Assembly (NCBI GenBank): GCA_035717985.1
Contig: DASTHW010000014.1
Span: 17,691-81,690 of the forward strand
Source of the DNA: Candidatus Saccharimonadales bacterium
GTDB taxonomy: Bacteria; Patescibacteriota; Saccharimonadia; Saccharimonadales; UBA10212
Direction: 5' to 3'
Length of the DNA stretch: 64,000 nucleotides
Shown: piece after piece, positions 30,594-62,387 of the stretch
Position numbering within the stretch: position 1 is the first letter of the stretch
How the letters are laid out: each line of letters begins with the position of its first letter
Notes under the pieces: generated by a model
Database searches by the model: none
What the model was told of the DNA's origin: nothing
Seen by the model: the letters and a program-made list of their open reading frames with translations, nothing else
Made by a program: the position numbers and the translations under genes

Positions 30594-30619
30594 GCGGGTG
30601 TAGCTCAGTTGTTTAGAGT
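30594..30619 (+). pseudogene. Orphan 5' fragment of tRNA-Gly (acceptor 5' strand plus D arm)
   Basis: 25 of 26 nt identical to 30771-30796 of the intact tRNA-Gly. No matching 3' half follows. Confidence 0.7.
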
Positions 30620-30770: not shown

Positions 30771-30847
30771 GCGGGTGTAGCTCAGTTGTTTAGAGCGCTT
30801 CCTTGCCAAGGAAGAGGCCGTGAGTTAGAGTCTCATCACCCGCACCA
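30771..30847 (+). tRNA. tRNA-Gly (GCC) with atypical D and T loops
   Basis: Cloverleaf with anticodon loop TTGCCAA and encoded CCA. D loop AGTTGTTTA lacks GG; T loop is TTAGAGT (A instead of C56). Confidence 0.8.
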
Positions 30848-54414: not shown

Positions 54415-57400
54415 ATGAAACGTTATAATCCGCAGGAGCTTGAGCCCAAGTGGCAAAAAATTTGGGCAGAGTCGGGCATTTATAAGACTGACATGAGCCG
54501 GGTATCAGATAAGTTTTATACCATCCCGATGCTACCGTACCCGTCTGGTGATCTGCATATCGGCCACTGGTATAACTATGTTGGCGCTGACAGTGTAGCC
54601 CGCTGGCGGCGCCTGCTAGGCCAAAATGTTTTTACGGCTTTAGGGTTTGATGCTTTTGGTCTGCCGGCAGAAAACGCCGCCATTAAGCGCGGCCTCCAGC
54701 CGGCTAAATGGACGAGAGGCAATATTAAATCAATGAAAGAGCAGATTGCTAAAATTGGCGCCAGCTATGACTGGGACCACAGCTTAATTACCTGCGACCC
54801 CGAATATTACCGCTGGAACCAATGGCTATTTTTAAAACTATATGAAAAAGGTCTGGCCTACCGCAAGAAGGCGATGGTCAACTGGTGCCCTAAAGACCAG
54901 ACTGTGCTGGCTAACGAGCAGGTGGTTGGCGAAAACAATGTTTGCGAGCGCTGCGGTACGCCGGTTATCCAAAAAACGCTACCGCAGTGGTTCTTCAAAA
55001 TTACCGACTATGCCGACCGCCTACTGGACGACCTGGATGAAGTTAATTGGCCTCAGCGGGTTAAGACCATGCAGGAGAACTGGATTGGGCGAAGCCGCGG
55101 GGCACTTATTAAATTTGCAGTAGAAGACTCAAAAGAGAATTTTATTGAGGTATTCACTACTCGGCCAGATACTATTTATGGTGCCACCTTCATGGTCGTA
55201 GCGCCTGAGCACAAAATACTTAACAAGTTAAGTATCTCCAAGGAAGTTGAAAAATATATTGAGCAGGCCAAGCGAAAAACCGAGCTGGAGCGCAAAGCCG
55301 GCGAGAAGGATAAAACTGGCGTCTTTAGCGGCCTTTATGCCATCAACCCGGCTAACAAAAAGAAAATTCCAATCTGGGTAGCCGATTATGTACTGATGAG
55401 CTACGGCACTGGCGCCATCATGGCCGTACCGGCCCACGACGAGCGTGATCACGAATTTGCTACGAAATTTGACCTGCCGATTGAGCCGGTTATCATTCAG
55501 GATTTTGGCGAACCTTTGCCCGATGAGCATTATGTTGAAGGAGTAGTGGTTATTCCTTATGACCCCAAGACCAAAAAATACCTGGCTCTGGGCGGCTGGA
55601 ATCAGGGTATTGGTTTGGTCGGCGGCGGCCGTGAGAGTGCGGAAAACCTAAAGCAGTGCGCCGCCCGTGAACTTGAAGAAGAGGCCGGCATTGCCAGCTA
55701 TGAGGCATTAATATCGCTGGGAGACCCAGTTTATTCTCATTACCATAACGATTTAAAGAAAATTAACCGCCGCTCGCTGGGGCAGGGTTACTTGGTAGTT
55801 ACCGATAGCCAAGCTAAAACTAAGAAACCGGCGCTGGAAGCCCACGAGAAGTTTAAGGCCGAGTGGATGGATATGGCCGATATCCGGGCCGGCATTACCA
55901 AACTTGGCGGCGGCACCCAGCACTGGTTAGAGATGACTGAGCGAGCTGAACGAGCCGCGGCCGATTATGAGGCAGGGCGTATTTACCAGCCGGCGCCCTA
56001 CAGCGGCGAGGGCGTTTTGATTAATTCTGATAAGTATGACGGCTTAAGTTCGGCAGAGGCTCGGGAAAAAATTGTCACTGATTTGTCCGGCGCTGGAGAT
56101 GATGAGCCGGTATTTGAACAGACCACTGGCTCCAGTGCGGTGAAAAAGGGTCAGCCGTTTGTGGAGCGCCAAGCTATTACAGCTATTGTTAAACACTGGT
56201 CCGAGGACAAGTACATCGGCCTGAAATGGAAAACGGTGGACTGGGAAACGTTGATTACCGGCGGTATCGAGAAAGGTCAAACGGCCGAGCAGGCGGCCAT
56301 TGCCGAAATTCGCGAGGAAACCGGCTACCAGAACCCTAAGCTGGTCAGAGTGCTTGGCAAAAACCATGCCAAATTCTTTCATGTGCCCAAAAATGAAAAT
56401 AGATTTGCGCACTTTACTTGCCTTTTGTTTGAGCTGGCTGACGGCGAGCGCGAGCAGGTAAGCGCTAAGGAACAAAAAAACCACGAGGTGGTCTGGCTGA
56501 CGCCGGCTCAGATGGAAAAGTTCGATTTGCCACAGTCGCACCGTCATATTTGGGACCAAATAAGGAAAGGCTCTGGCGGCCTGGCCCGCGCTCAAACCAA
56601 TTACCGTCTGCGCGACTGGCTGATTAGCCGCCAACGATATTGGGGTACACCTATCCCCATAATTTACTGCGATAAATGCGGCATCCAGCCGGTAAGCGAA
56701 AGCGACCTGCCGGTGATACTGCCTGAAGATGTGGAGTTTGAGCTATCTGGCCAGTCGCCGCTTGTCAACCGGCCGGATTTTGTTAATACTAAATGCCCCA
56801 ACTGTGGCGGGCCAGCAAAGCGCGAGACCGACACCATGGACACTTTCATGGATTCCAGCTGGTATTTCCTGCGCTATATCGACAATAAGAATGATAAAGC
56901 GGCTTTTGATACCAAGCTTATCAACCAGTGGGCGCCGGTCGATCACTATCTAGGCGGTATTGAGCACGCCATCTTGCATCTACTTTATGCCCGCTTTATG
57001 GTTAAGTTTCTGCATGATTATCACGGTCTAACTTTTACCGAGCCGTTTAAAAGACTGACCAACCAAGGCATTATTTTAGGCCCAGACGGCCAAAAGATGA
57101 GCAAGTCCCGCGGCAATGTTGTCAGCCCCGATGAGCAGGTAAAGAGCTACGGCGCTGACAGCTTGAGACTCTACATGCTGTTTATGGGTCCGTATGACCA
57201 AGGCGGTCCTTATAGTCTTGGCGGCATAGCCGGAACGCGCCGGTTTTTGGATAGAGTTTGGACACTTTTAGGGGAATACTTAGAGTCACCGGCGGAACCT
57301 ATAGCCGATATGGACGAGGTAGCTATAACGGCGGCGGTCCACCGGGCTATCAAGAAAGTGACCAATGATATCGAGGCACTTAACTTTAATACGGCTATTG

Positions 57401-57807
57401 CCGGCTTGATGAGCCTGACAAATGAGCTATACAAATTTAAAGTTAAACCAGGGCTGGCGCAGACACCGGCTTGGCGGTTTGCCTTTGACAGCCTGGTCCA
57501 GTTACTCGCGCCTATGGCGCCGCACATCACCGAGGAACTGTGGCAGGCCCTGGGCCATGAAAGCTCAGTCCATATCTCGGAGTGGCCGGCCTGGGATGAG
57601 GCGCTAGTAAGTGACGAGATGGTAACCATCGCCGTCCAGGTAAATGGCAAAGTCCGAGGCGAGATAGTGATTTCTAAATCTGCTGAAGCTGGTGAAGTGA
57701 TTGCTATGGCTAAAGAGGACGATAAAGTCGCCAAACAGCTGGCCGGTAAAAAAATCAAAAAAGAAATCTACGTTCCCGGACGGCTGGTTAGCCTAGTTGT
57801 TGGCTAA
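54415..57807 (+). CDS. leuS: Leucine--tRNA ligase with two inserted NUDIX domains (1130 aa)
   Basis: PSGDLHIGH, TTRPDTIYGATFMVVAPEH, GTGAIMAVPAHDERDHEF, YRLRDWLISRQRYWGTPIP and KMSKS in canonical order. Two extra blocks carry Nudix boxes (see findings). Confidence 0.95.
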   Translation: MKRYNPQELEPKWQKIWAESGIYKTDMSRVSDKFYTIPMLPYPSGDLHIGHWYNYVGADSVARWRRLLGQNVFTALGFDAFGLPAENAAIKRGLQPAKWTRGNIKSMKEQIAKIGASYDWDHSLITCDPEYYRWNQWLFLKLYEKGLAYRKKAMVNWCPKDQTVLANEQVVGENNVCERCGTPVIQKTLPQWFFKITDYADRLLDDLDEVNWPQRVKTMQENWIGRSRGALIKFAVEDSKENFIEVFTTRPDTIYGATFMVVAPEHKILNKLSISKEVEKYIEQAKRKTELERKAGEKDKTGVFSGLYAINPANKKKIPIWVADYVLMSYGTGAIMAVPAHDERDHEFATKFDLPIEPVIIQDFGEPLPDEHYVEGVVVIPYDPKTKKYLALGGWNQGIGLVGGGRESAENLKQCAARELEEEAGIASYEALISLGDPVYSHYHNDLKKINRRSLGQGYLVVTDSQAKTKKPALEAHEKFKAEWMDMADIRAGITKLGGGTQHWLEMTERAERAAADYEAGRIYQPAPYSGEGVLINSDKYDGLSSAEAREKIVTDLSGAGDDEPVFEQTTGSSAVKKGQPFVERQAITAIVKHWSEDKYIGLKWKTVDWETLITGGIEKGQTAEQAAIAEIREETGYQNPKLVRVLGKNHAKFFHVPKNENRFAHFTCLLFELADGEREQVSAKEQKNHEVVWLTPAQMEKFDLPQSHRHIWDQIRKGSGGLARAQTNYRLRDWLISRQRYWGTPIPIIYCDKCGIQPVSESDLPVILPEDVEFELSGQSPLVNRPDFVNTKCPNCGGPAKRETDTMDTFMDSSWYFLRYIDNKNDKAAFDTKLINQWAPVDHYLGGIEHAILHLLYARFMVKFLHDYHGLTFTEPFKRLTNQGIILGPDGQKMSKSRGNVVSPDEQVKSYGADSLRLYMLFMGPYDQGGPYSLGGIAGTRRFLDRVWTLLGEYLESPAEPIADMDEVAITAAVHRAIKKVTNDIEALNFNTAIAGLMSLTNELYKFKVKPGLAQTPAWRFAFDSLVQLLAPMAPHITEELWQALGHESSVHISEWPAWDEALVSDEMVTIAVQVNGKVRGEIVISKSAEAGEVIAMAKEDDKVAKQLAGKKIKKEIYVPGRLVSLVVG

Positions 57808-58688: not shown

Positions 58689-59195
58689 ATGAAACGACCC
58701 AAACCGATACGCGGTTTTAGAAAATTTGTCAGCGAGCACCGCCCGGCAATTGCCGAAGTGGTCCGCGAGCCAACTGCCGGCGGCATTATATTTAGGCGGG
58801 GTAAGGCCGGCGTTGAGATTTTACTTATAGCCGATTCCAAGCACCGCTGGACTATCCCTAAAGGTCACATCGAAGAGGGCGAGACACCCCGCCAAACCGC
58901 CCAGCGCGAAATTGAAGAGGAGACCGGCCTAGCCGAAATGAAAATGATGGATTGGCTGGGTAAAATTAATTTTCGCTACCGCCGCGACAACACCCTAGTG
59001 CTAATGACCACCGAGATTTTTTTGGTGGAGGCCCGTGGTGACACTAATAAAATCAAACCGCAGGAATGGATGGCCGACATTGCCTGGCTAGCCGCCAAAG
59101 ACGCCTTAGATAAAATTGAGTATGAAGACATTGGCAAACTAATCTTGCTGGCACTGAAGAAAATCAGAGAATCAGCTGTAGAAAAAAGAGGATAA
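58689..59195 (+). CDS. NUDIX hydrolase
   Basis: Nudix box KGHIEEGETPRQTAQREIEEETGL. Confidence 0.88.
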   Translation: MKRPKPIRGFRKFVSEHRPAIAEVVREPTAGGIIFRRGKAGVEILLIADSKHRWTIPKGHIEEGETPRQTAQREIEEETGLAEMKMMDWLGKINFRYRRDNTLVLMTTEIFLVEARGDTNKIKPQEWMADIAWLAAKDALDKIEYEDIGKLILLALKKIRESAVEKRG

Positions 59196-59208: not shown

Positions 59209-59916
59209 ATGGATGTATCAAAGTATCAGACTTTTGCTGACCAGCATTTTGGCGGCTTTAGTGATATTGGTCTTTTAATCACCGCCTTTACTCACCGAAG
59301 CTATATTAATGAGCATAAAAAAACGGCCTCTGAACATAATGAGCGCTTAGAATTTTTAGGCGACGCCGTTTTGGAGTTGGTGGTGACTGAGCATCTTTAT
59401 AACAACTATAAAGAGCCAGAAGGCGTTTTAACTAACTGGCGAAGTGCGCTGGTGCGGACGGAAAGCATCAGTGCCGCTGCCGATAGAGAAGGTTTTGAAT
59501 CTCTTCTTAGGCTGTCGCGTGGTGAGCGGCGGGCGGCCTCACCGCGGGCCCGCGAACAAATTTTAGCCAACTCTTACGAGGCGGTGATTGGCGCTCTTTA
59601 TTTAGACAAAGGTTATGAGGCCGCCCGGGAGTTTATTAGCCGGACGCTTCTGCCGGTCTTGCCGCAAATTTTAGAAACCGGAGCCTGGCTGGATCCTAAA
59701 TCCCGCCTGCAGGAGCTGGTTCAAAGCCATGAAGATGCTACACCGGTCTATAAAGTATTGAGCGAGGAAGGGCCGGACCATGACAAAACCTTTGTGGTCG
59801 GCGTTTTTGTAAGCAATGATTTGAAGGGGGAGGGGTCGGGGCCGAGTAAGCAGGCCGCGCAGGTCGCCGCCGCCTCTACCGCCCTCCAAGCTTACGTGAC
59901 GCACCAACCAAACTAA
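59209..59916 (+). CDS. rnc: Ribonuclease III
   Basis: Signature ERLEFLGDAVL and a C-terminal dsRBD (GPDHDKTFVVGV...GSGPSKQAAQVAAA). Confidence 0.95.
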   Translation: MDVSKYQTFADQHFGGFSDIGLLITAFTHRSYINEHKKTASEHNERLEFLGDAVLELVVTEHLYNNYKEPEGVLTNWRSALVRTESISAAADREGFESLLRLSRGERRAASPRAREQILANSYEAVIGALYLDKGYEAAREFISRTLLPVLPQILETGAWLDPKSRLQELVQSHEDATPVYKVLSEEGPDHDKTFVVGVFVSNDLKGEGSGPSKQAAQVAAASTALQAYVTHQPN

Positions 59917-60051
59917 GCAAAAGCTTAGCTTTGGGCTGGTGCTTTTGGGATATTACTGCGTCAGAACCTCAAGCTACTCGCTCCCAGTATTCCCATACAG
60001 CTCGCTCTTAGCTCGGCTCTTCCTGGTACTACCCTAAAACACGTAAGCTTG
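59887..60051. repeat. Structured intergenic element (E4), homologous to E5
   Basis: 12-bp perfect outer stem CAAGCTTACGTG (59887-59898) / CACGTAAGCTTG (60040-60051). Inner hairpin GCACCAACCAAA...TTTGGGCTGGTGC followed by TTTT. Core is about 70% identical to E5 by eye. Confidence 0.6.
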
Positions 60052-60164
60052 AAGTTAGAGATTGCTCGCTTTCTCCTTGCGCTACCTTCAAACGGTGTAT
60101 TTCGGGGACCCACACCTGCCTTAGTTGACAACAGGGGTGCTTATCTGTAAAATTACTTAGACCT

Positions 60165-60665
60165 ATGTTAGCTATCCGTATGCAAAGAACCGGCCGCAAG
60201 GGCCATGCCCAATACCGCTTGATAGTTCAAGACAGCCGCTTTAGCCCGACGAGCGGGCGAGTCGTGGCTTATGTGGGCAGTTATAATCCTCATACCAAAG
60301 CCGTAAATTTAGATAAATCTAAAATTGAGTCGTATTTAAGTAATGGTACTCAACCTTCTCTGGCCGCCGTTCGTTTATTGAAAAAAGAAGGCGTCAAACT
60401 ACCAGCTTGGGTTAACGAACCTTCTGATAAAAAACGCTCCATTAGGAATCCTGAAAAATTGCGCCGAAACCGACCTGCCGGCGAGACTGAGGCCGCCGCT
60501 GAATCCCCGGCCGCTGAAGAATCGGCTGAGACTCCTGAGTCCTCTACGCCTGCCGCCGAAGGCGACCAGCCAGCCGATGAGACTCCAGCTGAGCCGGCCA
60601 CCGAAGAGCCAGCTAGTAAAGAGGCGGCCGCTGAAGAACCGTCTAGCGGCGACCAAGCGGCTTAA
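60165..60665 (+). CDS. rpsP: 30S ribosomal protein S16 with acidic Ala/Glu/Pro-rich C-terminal extension
   Basis: MLAIRMQRTGRKGHAQYRLIVQDSR N-terminus typical of S16. About 80-aa low-complexity tail. Confidence 0.92.
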   Translation: MLAIRMQRTGRKGHAQYRLIVQDSRFSPTSGRVVAYVGSYNPHTKAVNLDKSKIESYLSNGTQPSLAAVRLLKKEGVKLPAWVNEPSDKKRSIRNPEKLRRNRPAGETEAAAESPAAEESAETPESSTPAAEGDQPADETPAEPATEEPASKEAAAEEPSSGDQAA

Positions 60666-60727
60666 TTAGCCGGACAACAAAGCTGATATACTAGAATCAG
60701 AAACTTGATTTTTAGGAGGTACGACCT

Positions 60728-61207
60728 ATGGCTGTCAGCATAGACCAGCAATTCATTGAATATATCGTAAAATCCCTCGTCAGTGAGCCCGACGCCGTCA
60801 AAATTGAGCGGCGCATAGATGAAAAAGGCGTGCTGTTAGAGCTAACGGTTGCGCCGGAAGACCTAGGTCGAGTAATCGGTAAGCGTGGTGCTACCGCTCA
60901 GAGCTTGCGCACTCTGCTTAGGGCATTAGGTACTAAAAACGACGCTAGGTACAACCTCAAGATTATAGACGTTGGCGGCCCCCGCCCAGCCCGCTCTACG
61001 GACAATTCTGCGCCGGCTCAGGCGGATGATTCAAAGCCAGCCAGCCAGCCAGAGCCGGCCGATGAGCCAGCCGACGATGACGCCAGCGAGCCCCAGGATG
61101 TTGGCCAGGCTACCAAAGACGACACACCTGCTAGCAGTGACGACAAAAAAACCCTAGCCGAAAAGACTAGGGCTGAACTGGCTGAGCTAGACGACTTAGA
61201 CGTCTGA
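60728..61207 (+). CDS. KH-domain RNA-binding protein (YlqC-like) with acidic C-terminal extension
   Basis: VKIERRIDEKGVLLELTVAPEDLGRVIGKRGATAQSLRTLL (GxxG KH motif), SD AGGAGG, usual position after rpsP. Confidence 0.85.
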   Translation: MAVSIDQQFIEYIVKSLVSEPDAVKIERRIDEKGVLLELTVAPEDLGRVIGKRGATAQSLRTLLRALGTKNDARYNLKIIDVGGPRPARSTDNSAPAQADDSKPASQPEPADEPADDDASEPQDVGQATKDDTPASSDDKKTLAEKTRAELAELDDLDV

Positions 61208-61210
61208 CAA

Positions 61211-61364
61211 CTTCAGGCCGCGCCAAAGTAAGCCAAGCAAAGCTCGTCTTGCTTTAGTGCTTCTGGCGCCTTACGGCGTCAGCGGCTCCAGTGCTCCCTC
61301 ACAGTATTTCGATACTGCTCAGTCCGCGCTTTGCCGCTTCCTTGTAATGCAATCAAACCTGAAG
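61211..61364. repeat. Structured intergenic element (E5), homologous to E4
   Basis: Outer stem CTTCAGG (61211-61217) / CCTGAAG (61358-61364). Inner stem GCGCCAAAG (61220-61228) / CTTCTGGCGC (61260-61269). It shares TTAC[TG]GCGTCAG and CAGTATT cores with E4. Confidence 0.6.
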
Positions 61365-61396
61365 CTGTCAGCTTGGAGGGCAGGGAGATTAAAATT

Positions 61397-61654
61397 TTAG
61401 TATTTCCAGCCGTTGGTAGATAACAGGCCGCGGGCCAGAGCTTTCTCATACTCGGGGAACCAGCGGTCCTGCAGTAAAGCTCTTAGGCCATCTACTACCA
61501 ATTTATTCTCCCAAGGCGATAGCTGAAACGGTACTTCGCGGCTATCTACATCTCTTGATAAATCAAATTTGCCCAACCGCCGAAGGGCAAACGAGCTTAA
61601 AGACAAAGCCGGCTCATCTTTAACTGTAATTTCGCTCTTTTCGGCACCAGCCAT
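61397..61654 (-). CDS. Hypothetical protein (85 aa)
   Basis: Only ORF in the KH-trmD gap. No SD or family recognised. Confidence 0.4.
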   Translation of the reverse strand: MAGAEKSEITVKDEPALSLSSFALRRLGKFDLSRDVDSREVPFQLSPWENKLVVDGLRALLQDRWFPEYEKALARGLLSTNGWKY

Positions 61655-61745: not shown

Positions 61746-62387
61746 ATGAAGATTCAAATTATCACCTTATTTCCTGAGATGTTTGACGGCGTGCTGGGTT
61801 CAAGCATGCTCTGGAAGGCTCAAAAAGATAATTTGGTTGAATACGGCCTCATTAATCTGCGAGGCTACGGCATTGGCCCCAGAAAGCAGGTTGATGATAC
61901 GCCTTACGGCGGCGGCGACGGCATGGTGCTGAAGCCCGAGCCGCTATTTCTAGCCGTTGAGCAGGCTAAAAGAAATGACCCCAGCGCCCAGGTGCTATTA
62001 ATGACGCCGCGCGGCGACTTATTTACCCAAAAAGTGGCCCGTGAATTTGCGGCTACCGAGGCCGGCCTAGTAATTATCTGCGGCCGCTATGAGGGCTATG
62101 ACGAGCGAATTACAACAGTGGTCGATAAGCAAATTCGTGTCGGCGACTATATTCTGACTGGCGGCGAACTGCCGGCCATGATTATTACCGACAGCGTAAC
62201 CCGCCTAATCCCGGGGGTGCTGGGCGGCGAGACCAGTGCCGAGCTGGAAAGCTTTAGTACGCCGGGGGCGATTGAGCATCCGCACTATACTAGGCCGGAA
62301 GAATTTCGGGGCCTACGTGTGCCGGAAGTACTGCTGTCCGGCAATCATAGCGAAATTGAAGCTTGGCGCGCTAAAAATTCAAAGTGA
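61746..62387 (+). CDS. trmD: tRNA (guanine37-N1)-methyltransferase
   Basis: ITLFPEMF..., GRYEGYDERI and GGELPAM motifs. Confidence 0.95.
   Translation: MKIQIITLFPEMFDGVLGSSMLWKAQKDNLVEYGLINLRGYGIGPRKQVDDTPYGGGDGMVLKPEPLFLAVEQAKRNDPSAQVLLMTPRGDLFTQKVAREFAATEAGLVIICGRYEGYDERITTVVDKQIRVGDYILTGGELPAMIITDSVTRLIPGVLGGETSAELESFSTPGAIEHPHYTRPEEFRGLRVPEVLLSGNHSEIEAWRAKNSK

Follow-up and report, generated by a model that had tools for sequence, protein, structure and literature searches.

Two elements flanking rpsP and a KH gene in a Saccharibacteria genome are copies of a dispersed structured RNA family

The genes for RNase III (rnc), ribosomal protein S16 (rpsP), a KhpA-type KH protein and TrmD follow one another in a 64,000-nucleotide stretch of a Candidatus Saccharimonadales genome (contig DASTHW010000014.1; this whole stretch is called the window below), and two homologous structured elements, E4 and E5, lie at the rnc-rpsP and KH-trmD junctions. 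An initial annotation described E4 as part of the rpsP 5' leader and E5 as part of the region 3' of the KH gene, took the two to bracket rpsP-KH as a unit, and connected E5 with the lack of rimM between KH and trmD. The question raised by this locus is whether the elements serve rpsP-KH or represent something more general. The results presented here give good support to the second answer: E4 and E5 are paralogous copies of a dispersed family of ~165-nt structured RNAs, not in Rfam, whose carriers are a clade of Saccharibacteria, most of them from soil. What the feature is can thus be regarded as well supported; the mechanism that we propose for it is one that we infer.

A conserved fold on the minus strand

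E4 and E5 share 67.3% identity over 147 nt in a blastn comparison (E 3e-12), and nhmmer relates them with an E-value of 3.7e-9. This confirms the homology that had been annotated, and the segments quoted in its support are present in the sequence. Both elements fold far better than dinucleotide shuffles, with z values of -4.6 to -6.4. As a whole, E4 occupies 59884-60054 on the minus strand, where a covariance model matches 59886-60052(-) with 110-130 bits (E 1e-26 to 1e-28). E5 occupies 61205-61370, also on the minus strand, with a match of 153-180 bits (E 1e-37 to 1e-40). When the 64 kb window was searched with a covariance model and filters off, E4 and E5 were the only copies; all other matches scored less than 20 bits and were hairpins of a generic kind.

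Homologs were collected with a pattern derived from the conserved hairpin of the element, which yielded 114 metagenome stretches. Covariance-model searches of the metagenome and genome loci (individual loci and contigs carry L numbers below) gave 92, 37 and 106 matches, corresponding to at least 112 distinct copies. The check proposed by the initial annotation, a search for additional structured homologs, therefore returned more than 100 of them, and with 102 distinct sequences the evidence for a conserved secondary structure with covarying outer stems became overwhelming. Across these 102 sequences, 93.2-93.5% of the cells in paired columns are standard pairs, compared with 67-68% in column shuffles and 22-43% in controls with slid partners; with an earlier homolog set included, the ranges are 93.2-93.6% for pairing and 22-45% for the slid controls. 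Changes on both sides of a pair are found in 50 of the 57 pairs, or in 53 of 60 in the refined structure, and the number of cells with such changes is 1511-1653 as against ~410-455 expected. All four Watson-Crick pair types occur at every position of the closing helix.

The strand on which this structure is selected was evident from the G-U pairs. Mismatches of the A-C type on the plus strand correspond to G-U pairs on the minus strand, and in the alignment of homologs the modelled (minus) strand has 337 G-U/U-G cells compared with 57 A-C/C-A cells. Some U-G positions are conserved in the family, for example in 82 of 102 sequences at one pair. In the window, the minus-strand fold of E4 has an energy of -80.9 kcal/mol (z -6.4) and the plus-strand fold -61.2 kcal/mol; the corresponding values for E5 are -71.6 and -65.0 kcal/mol. 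A comparison of folding energies, which is independent of any alignment, favoured the modelled strand in each of the 70 full-length copies, with a mean difference of -13.9 kcal/mol. The pairing is thus shown to be kept by compensatory changes on one strand only, and the selected structure is that of the minus strand, antisense to rnc, rpsP, KH and trmD. The strand indicated by the G-U pairs agrees with the orientation of those copies that abut transfer-messenger RNA (tmRNA) or tRNA genes (see below).

The element consists of a closing helix, P1, and two hairpins, H1 and H2. P1 comprises ~13-16 bp; its sequence differs at each locus, its length is nearly constant, and one of its arms is often made from the stop codon or last codons of the neighbouring gene. 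It had been noted that the closing stems of E4 and E5 differ in sequence and yet pair in both, and on the minus strand these helices in fact reach 15-16 bp (60054-60040/59898-59884 in E4 and 61370-61356/61219-61205 in E5). The 5' strand of P1 in E4, CUUCAAGCUUACGUG (60040-60054, minus strand), pairs with the 3' strand CACGUAAGCUUGGAG (59884-59898), which is the antisense of the rnc codons L-Q-A-Y-V. In E5, the 5' strand of P1 (13 nt) with a following UUU lies at 61356-61370, the UUU pairing with AGA at 61262-61264; the 3' strand, assigned by column mapping, is at 61205-61219 and pairs with 61370-61356. The KH stop codon TGA has its complement in UCA, the final three bases of E5.

H1 is ~86 nt long and strongly conserved, and is built of 2-7 bp helices split by GA/GGA loops. 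It contains a motif resembling a kink-turn (K-turn), in which URC-AAG-GA-AG stands opposite CUGA-CRCN-GYA. Mapping by alignment columns (together with pair counts for H1 of E4) places the long hairpin with its G-A-rich internal loops at 59949-60033 in E4, its K-turn-like part at 60019-60028 with 59954-59964 and its terminal stem-loop at 59984-60001, all on the minus strand. The equivalent minus-strand parts of E5 are H1 at 61267-61351, the K-turn-like part at 61337-61346 with 61272-61282 and the terminal stem-loop at 61301-61318. H2 (~40-45 nt) is hypervariable. It lies at 59901-59942 in E4, where its base includes the rnc codons ACG CAC, and at 61220-61260 in E5, again on the minus strand. 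It is missing from ~15 short copies and is dispensable. When H2 was considered as a guide complementary to the flanks, no signal was obtained.

A mutual-information scan revealed an extra 3-bp helix (columns 17-19 with 128-130 of alignment A5), which was not built into the model. This helix is 98% paired and shows U-A to C-G swaps. As a consequence, UGGR and CCARRA, which look like junction strands, are paired to one another and H1 abuts the closing helix directly. The same scan detected non-canonical pairs that covary, from G.A to A.G and from A.G to C.A.

Copies, cores and neighbours across the family

A scan based on TrmD placed the window in the Saccharibacteria and returned 80 syntenic loci from different species, 3 of which contain the element. 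L001, from the closest genome, carries the E5 ortholog, a copy at the KH stop codon; in L019 a short form is located between nudix and rnc; and L031 has a degenerate copy. E5 also has orthologs at the KH stop codon in L085 and L121, and the copy at the rnc/rpsP site of L121 (L121:7694-7862) is the ortholog of E4. The metagenome contigs were mostly assigned without an individual taxonomy check; L121 and L085, which share synteny with the window, carry window-like rnc, S16 and KH homologues. E4 itself is missing from L001, in which only 12 nt separate the rnc stop codon from the rpsP promoter, and also from L085. These two loci and 77 others have an rnc-rpsP junction free of the element, and a copy adjoining rpsP is present only in the window and L121. 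Only these two have copies at both the rnc/rpsP and the KH site. Comparison of synteny, in which L001 keeps E5 and lacks E4, and the location of 112 copies beside diverse genes thus contradict the notion that the elements bracket rpsP-KH as a unit.

Two or three copies are found within a few kilobases on several contigs, including three in 6 kb on L177, two of them around murJ. For genomes of reduced size this probably amounts to a density of thirty or more copies per Mb. Rfam 15, with its 6S, Y RNA, SRP, raiA, T-box and ribozyme models among others, gave no match on E4 or E5 at gathering thresholds and nothing above 22 bits at E-values up to 10, and the Rfam models found in 20 related loci were those of tRNA, tmRNA and RNase P RNA only. 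We did not find in the literature a description of an RNA of this kind from Saccharibacteria or from the Candidate Phyla Radiation (CPR). The H1-derived pattern had no match in viral contigs, and BLAST searches against phage and plasmid collections gave none.

The rnc junction provides information on selection in single copies. E4 extends into rnc, as had been annotated, and overlaps its last 10-11 codons, to which both the 3' strand of its P1 and the base of its H2 are antisense. The C-terminus of RNase III (AAL-x-x-Y...) is ancestral in Saccharibacteria, with or without the element. The rnc codons beneath P1 of E4 read L-Q-A-Y-V in the window and L-K-T-F-A in L121, with differences at 7 of 15 bases, and the two copies have a core identity of 65%. 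All seven differences are compensated in the partner strand, leaving both helices fully paired. The matching of the L121 codon changes across the helix is, in our view, strong evidence for selection on pairing within single old copies.

Copies have a median core identity of 67% to one another, and some cores at different loci are nearly identical. The pairs L104/L124 (92-93%) and L132/L089 (94-95%) share H2 and the inner 4-6 bases of P1, and differ in having unrelated outer P1 sequences and flanks. In the Ga0105238 rhizosphere population, copies at the KH site and at the RNR site have cores that are 100% identical, and only the outer 6 bp of P1 differ; contigs of this population end inside the element (L085, L141, L156), and L149 is chimeric. 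The presence of near-identical cores between unrelated closing helices implies that the core moves or is replaced between loci. Core identity does not track the orthology of the loci, whereas P1 does, and for this reason we dropped the idea of ancient paralogs diverging in place. A large subfamily shows partial conservation of the inner 4-9 bp of its closing helices (e.g. CTTCGCAT / ATGCGAAG), with outer 6-11 bp that differ completely between copies. Target-site duplications were not detected: the longest direct repeat at the borders has a mean of 3.57 nt, compared with 3.43 +/- 0.09 nt when flanks are re-paired.

Copies adjoin unrelated genes, including those for EF-G, alaS/ftsA, murJ, RNR, frr, mnmA, a sigma factor, an RRM protein, tmRNA and tRNAs. 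Between co-directional genes the element is antisense in 38 cases and sense in 11 (p = 1.4e-4). Its 3' end is closely packed against its neighbour: the median distance to a convergent stop codon is -2 nt, with 71% of copies within 12 nt, and the distance is 0 nt to tmRNA or tRNA and -1 nt to the murJ ATG. At the 5' end, on the other hand, a spacer of ~55 nt (median) is retained, also where the upstream neighbour has the same orientation and faces the element with its 3' end, and the nearest ~25 nt of this flank are AT-rich. The spacer may provide room for promoter activity.

In four contigs (L111, L157, L150 and L120) the 3' end of the element abuts or overlaps the 5' end of mature tmRNA by 0-2 nt in the same orientation, and TGGTATAAT, an extended -10 promoter, or a TATAAT box is located 27-61 nt upstream of the element. 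Since the element thereby lies between promoter and tmRNA 5' end, it would be within the tmRNA primary transcript, from which RNase P cleavage would release it. A copy in L152 abuts tRNA-Gln in the same manner. The placement beside tmRNA and tRNA, taken together with the G-U asymmetry, points indirectly to transcription in the modelled orientation.

Some arrangements at particular genes were observed in passing. In three tmRNA-linked copies (L111:4858-5054, L157:1245-1441 and L150:9976-10170) the first ~12 nt of tmRNA have a complement in the leader that precedes the element (AAAUU.. with ..GAAUUU), which lengthens the closing helix to ~27-28 bp with a few mismatches. The murJ gene lies between two copies in L154:2074-3995 and L177:827-2746; the upstream copy is sense, ends at the A of the ATG and has the GGAGG Shine-Dalgarno sequence within its closing helix, and the downstream copy, in convergent orientation, reaches over the stop codon. 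A short form without H2 is found 7-11 nt upstream of an rpmA-like gene in L093:3996-4114, L103:161-280, L088:2001-2114 and L182:1440-1563. These copies have an AAGGA Shine-Dalgarno sequence in the 3' strand of the closing helix; the resemblance of the N-terminus of the gene product to ribosomal protein L27 was judged by eye only.

Genes and transcription signals around E4 and E5

The open reading frame (ORF) listing and Pfam identify nudix (58689-59195), rnc (59209-59916, plus strand, stop codon 59914-59916), rpsP (60165-60665, plus strand, ATG at 60165), the KH gene (60728-61207, plus strand, stop codon TGA) and trmD (61746-62387, plus strand). A promoter with 11 of 12 consensus matches, TTGACA-17-TAAAAT, is located at 60125-60153 on the plus strand, between E4 and the rpsP ATG. 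It ends 11 nt before the ATG, and a Shine-Dalgarno sequence is absent, so that the rpsP mRNA is probably almost leaderless. The same promoter occurs directly after rnc in L001, L085 and many other Saccharibacteria loci; in several relatives its -35 box overlaps the rnc stop codon. With this promoter downstream of E4 and the fold on the opposite strand, the assignment of E4 to the rpsP 5' leader had to be abandoned. E5 does adjoin the end of the KH gene, as annotated, but it is not part of a sense 3' region, since its fold is antisense.

Consistent with the initial annotation, the KH-trmD gap has no rimM-like ORF and holds E5 and an orphan 85-amino-acid ORF on the minus strand, orf85 (61397-61654), which ends 26 nt upstream of E5 on the same strand. 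Whether orf85 is a real gene is uncertain: it has no Pfam match, and a tblastn search of ~1.5 Mb of DNA from related Saccharibacteria found no homolog. The distance between KH and trmD varies from 15 to 4275 nt among 69 Saccharibacteria loci, with ORFs that are variable and mostly on the minus strand, and neither in these gaps nor in that of the window is there a RimM-like ORF on the plus strand. In other genomes, unrelated small ORFs, mostly minus-strand, are seen at the position of orf85. A tblastn search with an E. coli RimM sequence, to be taken as a lead only, gave no match in the window or in the ~1.5 Mb of related loci. The absence of rimM is therefore a trait general to the Saccharibacteria lineage and unrelated to E5. 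The alternative that E5 is a decayed gene is likewise at odds with the lack of a RimM match and with more than 100 structured homologs elsewhere.

Candidate transcription signals for E5 are present on both of its sides. A -10-like hexamer, TAAAAT (61394-61399, minus strand), lies 23 nt upstream of E5 and overlaps the orf85 stop codon; from its position it is a possible E5 promoter, and the L001 ortholog of E5 has TATAAT 24 nt upstream. Within the coding tail of the KH gene, 30 nt downstream of E5, a hairpin resembling a strong intrinsic terminator with its T run (61150-61174, minus strand) has a 10-bp stem followed by TTTTTTTG. It could form the 3' end of an orf85-E5 or E5 transcript, and it is not conserved in E5 orthologs. 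Neither E4 nor E5 has a T run after the closing helix on the plus strand. Genomes that lack E5 showed no pre-existing hairpin at the KH stop codon.

Three further observations concern the same region or other parts of the window. Saccharibacteria without E5 have a different conserved pair of small hairpins within 70 nt after the KH stop codon, AGTTCA...TGAACTGCGAG ... GCTCnnnGCGAGC (L006, L010-L019, L023, L024, L038, L049, L053 and others), which could be a separate leader or terminator motif for trmD. The leucyl-tRNA synthetase (LeuRS) encoded at 54415-57807 on the plus strand (1130 amino acids) has two NUDIX-domain stretches (Pfam PF00293, E 1e-25) between its editing and anticodon-binding parts, a fusion that is unusual for an aminoacyl-tRNA synthetase. 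Finally, a 25-nt exact direct repeat (30594-30618 and 30771-30795) consists of the 5' part of a tRNA gene (30771-30844) copied 177 nt upstream, and may be the remnant of a duplication or integration event.

Explanations for the element and comparison with known systems

Our best guess is that the element is a processed, stable RNA module with mobile-element behaviour. We assign a probability of roughly 0.6 to the reading in which it is a processed stable small RNA or ribonucleoprotein (RNP) module that is dispersed, on the minus strand here, partly mobile and without a specific tie to rpsP-KH or rimM. The module would be transcribed from promoter activity in the AT-rich 5' spacer. For E5, transcription could start at TAAAAT (61399-61394) or result from read-through of orf85; for E4, we can name no other candidate than the rpsP promoter region acting divergently. 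The transcript would be trimmed or cut to the base of the closing helix, by RNase P where the element abuts tmRNA or tRNA and elsewhere perhaps by RNase III or exonucleases, with the terminator-like hairpin 30 nt downstream of E5 as a possible further 3' end. The resulting small RNA is predicted to persist and to bind a protein partner through the conserved H1 core, and the family would spread or homogenise as the core passes from one locus to another together with the inner 4-8 bp of the helix.

Several points weigh against this reading. The alignments were fitted to the model, which biases the pair counts, although the folding-energy strand test and the mutual-information helix are independent of that fitting. 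The collecting pattern lay in the 3' half of H1 and inflates conservation there, leaving conservation outside this half and the pairing statistics unaffected. The flanking genes are so diverse that no functional association emerges. There was no significant enrichment of promoters at a fixed distance across the family, E4 is without a good -10 of its own, where promoter activity 5' of each copy would be expected, and terminators are not enriched around copies (12, 8, 6 and 8 of 74 in the four flank/strand combinations). Moreover, the thirty-plus copies per Mb, the gain and loss between relatives and the transfer of cores fit a selfish element equally well.

The most serious competitor is accordingly a purely selfish, non-autonomous mobile element, resembling a MITE (miniature inverted-repeat transposable element) or a palindromic element of Rickettsia, or mobilised via RNA or single-stranded DNA, in which the fold serves only to be recognised by a transposase or reverse transcriptase whose gene lies elsewhere and the copies have no host function. 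Such an element would explain the many intergenic copies in either orientation, with up to three in 6 kb (L177), their variable presence among relatives (3 of 80 trmD loci; E4 missing from L001 and L085), the near-identical cores at unrelated loci, the breaking of assemblies inside the element, and the semi-conserved inner bases of the closing helix, which are like short terminal inverted repeats. We nevertheless consider it unlikely. Target-site duplications were not found, and the outermost ends are hypervariable instead of conserved. Old copies with 55-67% core identity keep 93% pairing and the conserved loop bases, unlike decaying selfish copies, and one copy co-evolves with the rnc codons that it overlaps. 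No transposase or reverse transcriptase was noticed among the recurring immediate neighbours, most single neighbours and the rest of the contigs being unannotated, and phage, plasmid and viral collections contained no match.

A related idea, to which we give less credence, is a mobile structured RNA whose core, after processing (H1 and H2 with the few innermost base pairs of the helix), is copied between loci, perhaps through an RNA intermediate, and becomes embedded between locus-specific inverted repeats derived from the target sequence. The targets would be stop codons, last codons, Shine-Dalgarno sites and tmRNA 5' ends, and neither a direct target duplication nor an adjacent protein gene would be needed.

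It is more doubtful still that the element is a cis-acting module marking transcript boundaries. In one form of this explanation, the module, transcribed antisense from the (bidirectional) promoter region of the downstream gene, would halt RNA polymerase or mark RNA for cleavage ahead of the upstream gene; in another, the element would form an RNase III site with read-through sense RNA and so insulate neighbours in a highly compact genome. The excess of antisense over sense copies in co-directional pairs (38 vs 11, p = 1.4e-4) is in line with such a role, as are the 3' end at the stop codon of the upstream gene (median -2 nt, 71% within 12 nt), the 5' end facing the promoter of the next gene and the near-constant closing helix of 15-16 bp, which suggests a measured processing site. 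Insulation or duplex formation, however, requires no conserved loops, non-canonical covariation or strand-specific fold; a U tract after the helix is absent and terminators are not enriched; and about one third of the copies occupy gaps between divergent or convergent genes or are 5' leaders abutting tmRNA, tRNA, murJ or rpmA.

Two further explanations are very improbable. A DNA-level element, such as a hairpin of single-stranded DNA or a site of recombination (attC-like, REP/RAYT-like or a single-strand origin), could produce the same strand asymmetry because G-T pairs are tolerated in DNA, would be compatible with the covariation, and recalls integron attC sites in its start at stop codons and in its variable helix sequence with conserved structure. 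Against it, conserved terminal core sites (RYYYAAC / GTTRRRY) are absent and the ends are hypervariable, the flanks are core housekeeping genes rather than cassettes, and in four contigs the element would be contained in the primary transcript of tmRNA. Recurring immediate neighbours, which were not searched systematically, included no integrase or Y1 transposase that was noticed, and if genes and replication are co-oriented, the commonest arrangement would make the folding strand the leading-strand template, which is not exposed. A plus-strand cis-regulatory pair controlling rpsP-KH, with E4 as rpsP 5' leader and E5 as KH 3' untranslated region and possibly tied to rimM loss, has in its favour good plus-strand folds (-61 and -65 kcal/mol) and the flanking of rpsP-KH in the window and L121, but fails on the promoter downstream of E4, the conserved G-U pairs that become A-C mismatches, the 70 of 70 copies that favour the other strand, the more than 100 copies adjoining unrelated genes, the occurrence of E5 without E4 in L001, and the general absence of rimM in Saccharibacteria.

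For the window, the story of a paired leader and trailer of rpsP-KH tied to rimM loss is thereby removed. The genomes of Saccharibacteria and other CPR bacteria are tiny and tightly packed, and to our knowledge their noncoding RNAs are almost uncharacterised. A structured RNA family of more than 100 copies, probably present at tens of copies per megabase, would be a significant unexplained part of Saccharibacteria genomes. Either the element acts in housekeeping or regulation as an abundant RNA or RNP, or it is an unusual mobile element whose closing helix is assembled from host sequence. Annotation is affected in both cases, as gene ends, tmRNA and tRNA leaders and some 5' untranslated regions (murJ, rpmA) overlap the element and assemblies break there.

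Two classes of known RNA signal were considered and rejected. An S16/rpsP leader class conflicts with the promoter downstream of E4, the antisense fold and the lack of a constant association with rpsP, and an intrinsic terminator or 3' untranslated region hairpin of the upstream gene conflicts with the lack of a plus-strand T run after the closing helix and of terminator enrichment.

Among mobile or repeated sequences, the closest parallels are the Rickettsia palindromic elements, reportedly described by Ogata et al. in 2000, and other intergenic repeats. Like these, the element is of the order of 100-170 nt, is present in many copies in a reduced or compact genome, can form long hairpins, occurs in either orientation at gene ends and RNA genes, includes old diverged copies and varies in presence. 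An overview of the small bacterial intergenic repeats covers ERIC, BOX, Correia and MITEs (PMC3184786). The element differs from such repeats in having no conserved inverted repeats at its very ends and no target duplications, in forming a three-way junction with conserved non-helical bases that is selected on one strand, and in combining a locus-specific outer helix with a shared core. In agreement with the dispersal typical of MITEs, near-identical cores (93-100%) were found at different loci. REP/REPIN sequences with RAYT are 20-40 nt palindromes mobilised by a Y1 transposase, in contrast to a three-way junction of ~165 nt whose window copies are 66% identical; no transposase was noticed among recurring immediate neighbours, and no whole-genome RAYT search was made. 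Retron msr-msd also has a closing inverted repeat, but E4 and E5 are flanked by rnc, rpsP, KH, orf85 and trmD, and no reverse transcriptase was noticed among recurring neighbours of other copies. Integron attC sites show the opposite pattern to the hypervariable ends and conserved interior of the element, which is moreover flanked by housekeeping genes.

Intervening sequences of rRNA are sporadic extended stem-loops that are excised by RNase III, their long basal helix being the processing site and the flanking RNA staying intact. The element shares with them the sporadic extended stem-loop with a long basal helix; it differs in its highly conserved, complex interior and was not found in the rRNA genes sampled. 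Y RNA/YrlA, 6S RNA and 4.5S RNA likewise have a sequence-variable terminal helix that closes a conserved, protein-binding core, and paralogous copies of them can occur. Unlike Y RNA, 6S RNA and the signal recognition particle RNA, the element has no neighbouring rsr or central bubble, is unmatched by the Rfam models and occurs in tens of copies as opposed to one or a few. Within H1, the conserved 3-nt AAG bulge, the tandem GA/GA positioned for sheared G.A pairs and the box D-like CUGA resemble a kink-turn or box C/D motif, and the kink-turn-like A.G pair covaries to C.A. In contrast to a canonical K-turn, four additional bases (CRCN) on the non-bulged strand separate the G.A pairs from the helix that follows, and we know of no L7Ae-type partner here.

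Comparative genomics has uncovered many orphan structured RNA motifs, 224 of them in one set (PMC5737381). Like raiA, HEARO and GOLLD/ROOL, the element is defined only by covariation and conserved loop bases, is restricted to a lineage and is sometimes located beside tRNA genes, whereas its copy number per genome is far higher and its genomic context inconstant. The combination of a shared core with a locus-specific helix made in part from neighbouring genes is one that we have not seen described in Rfam or in the literature searched. Overall, the element combines traits of the orphan structured RNAs with those of the small intergenic repeats.

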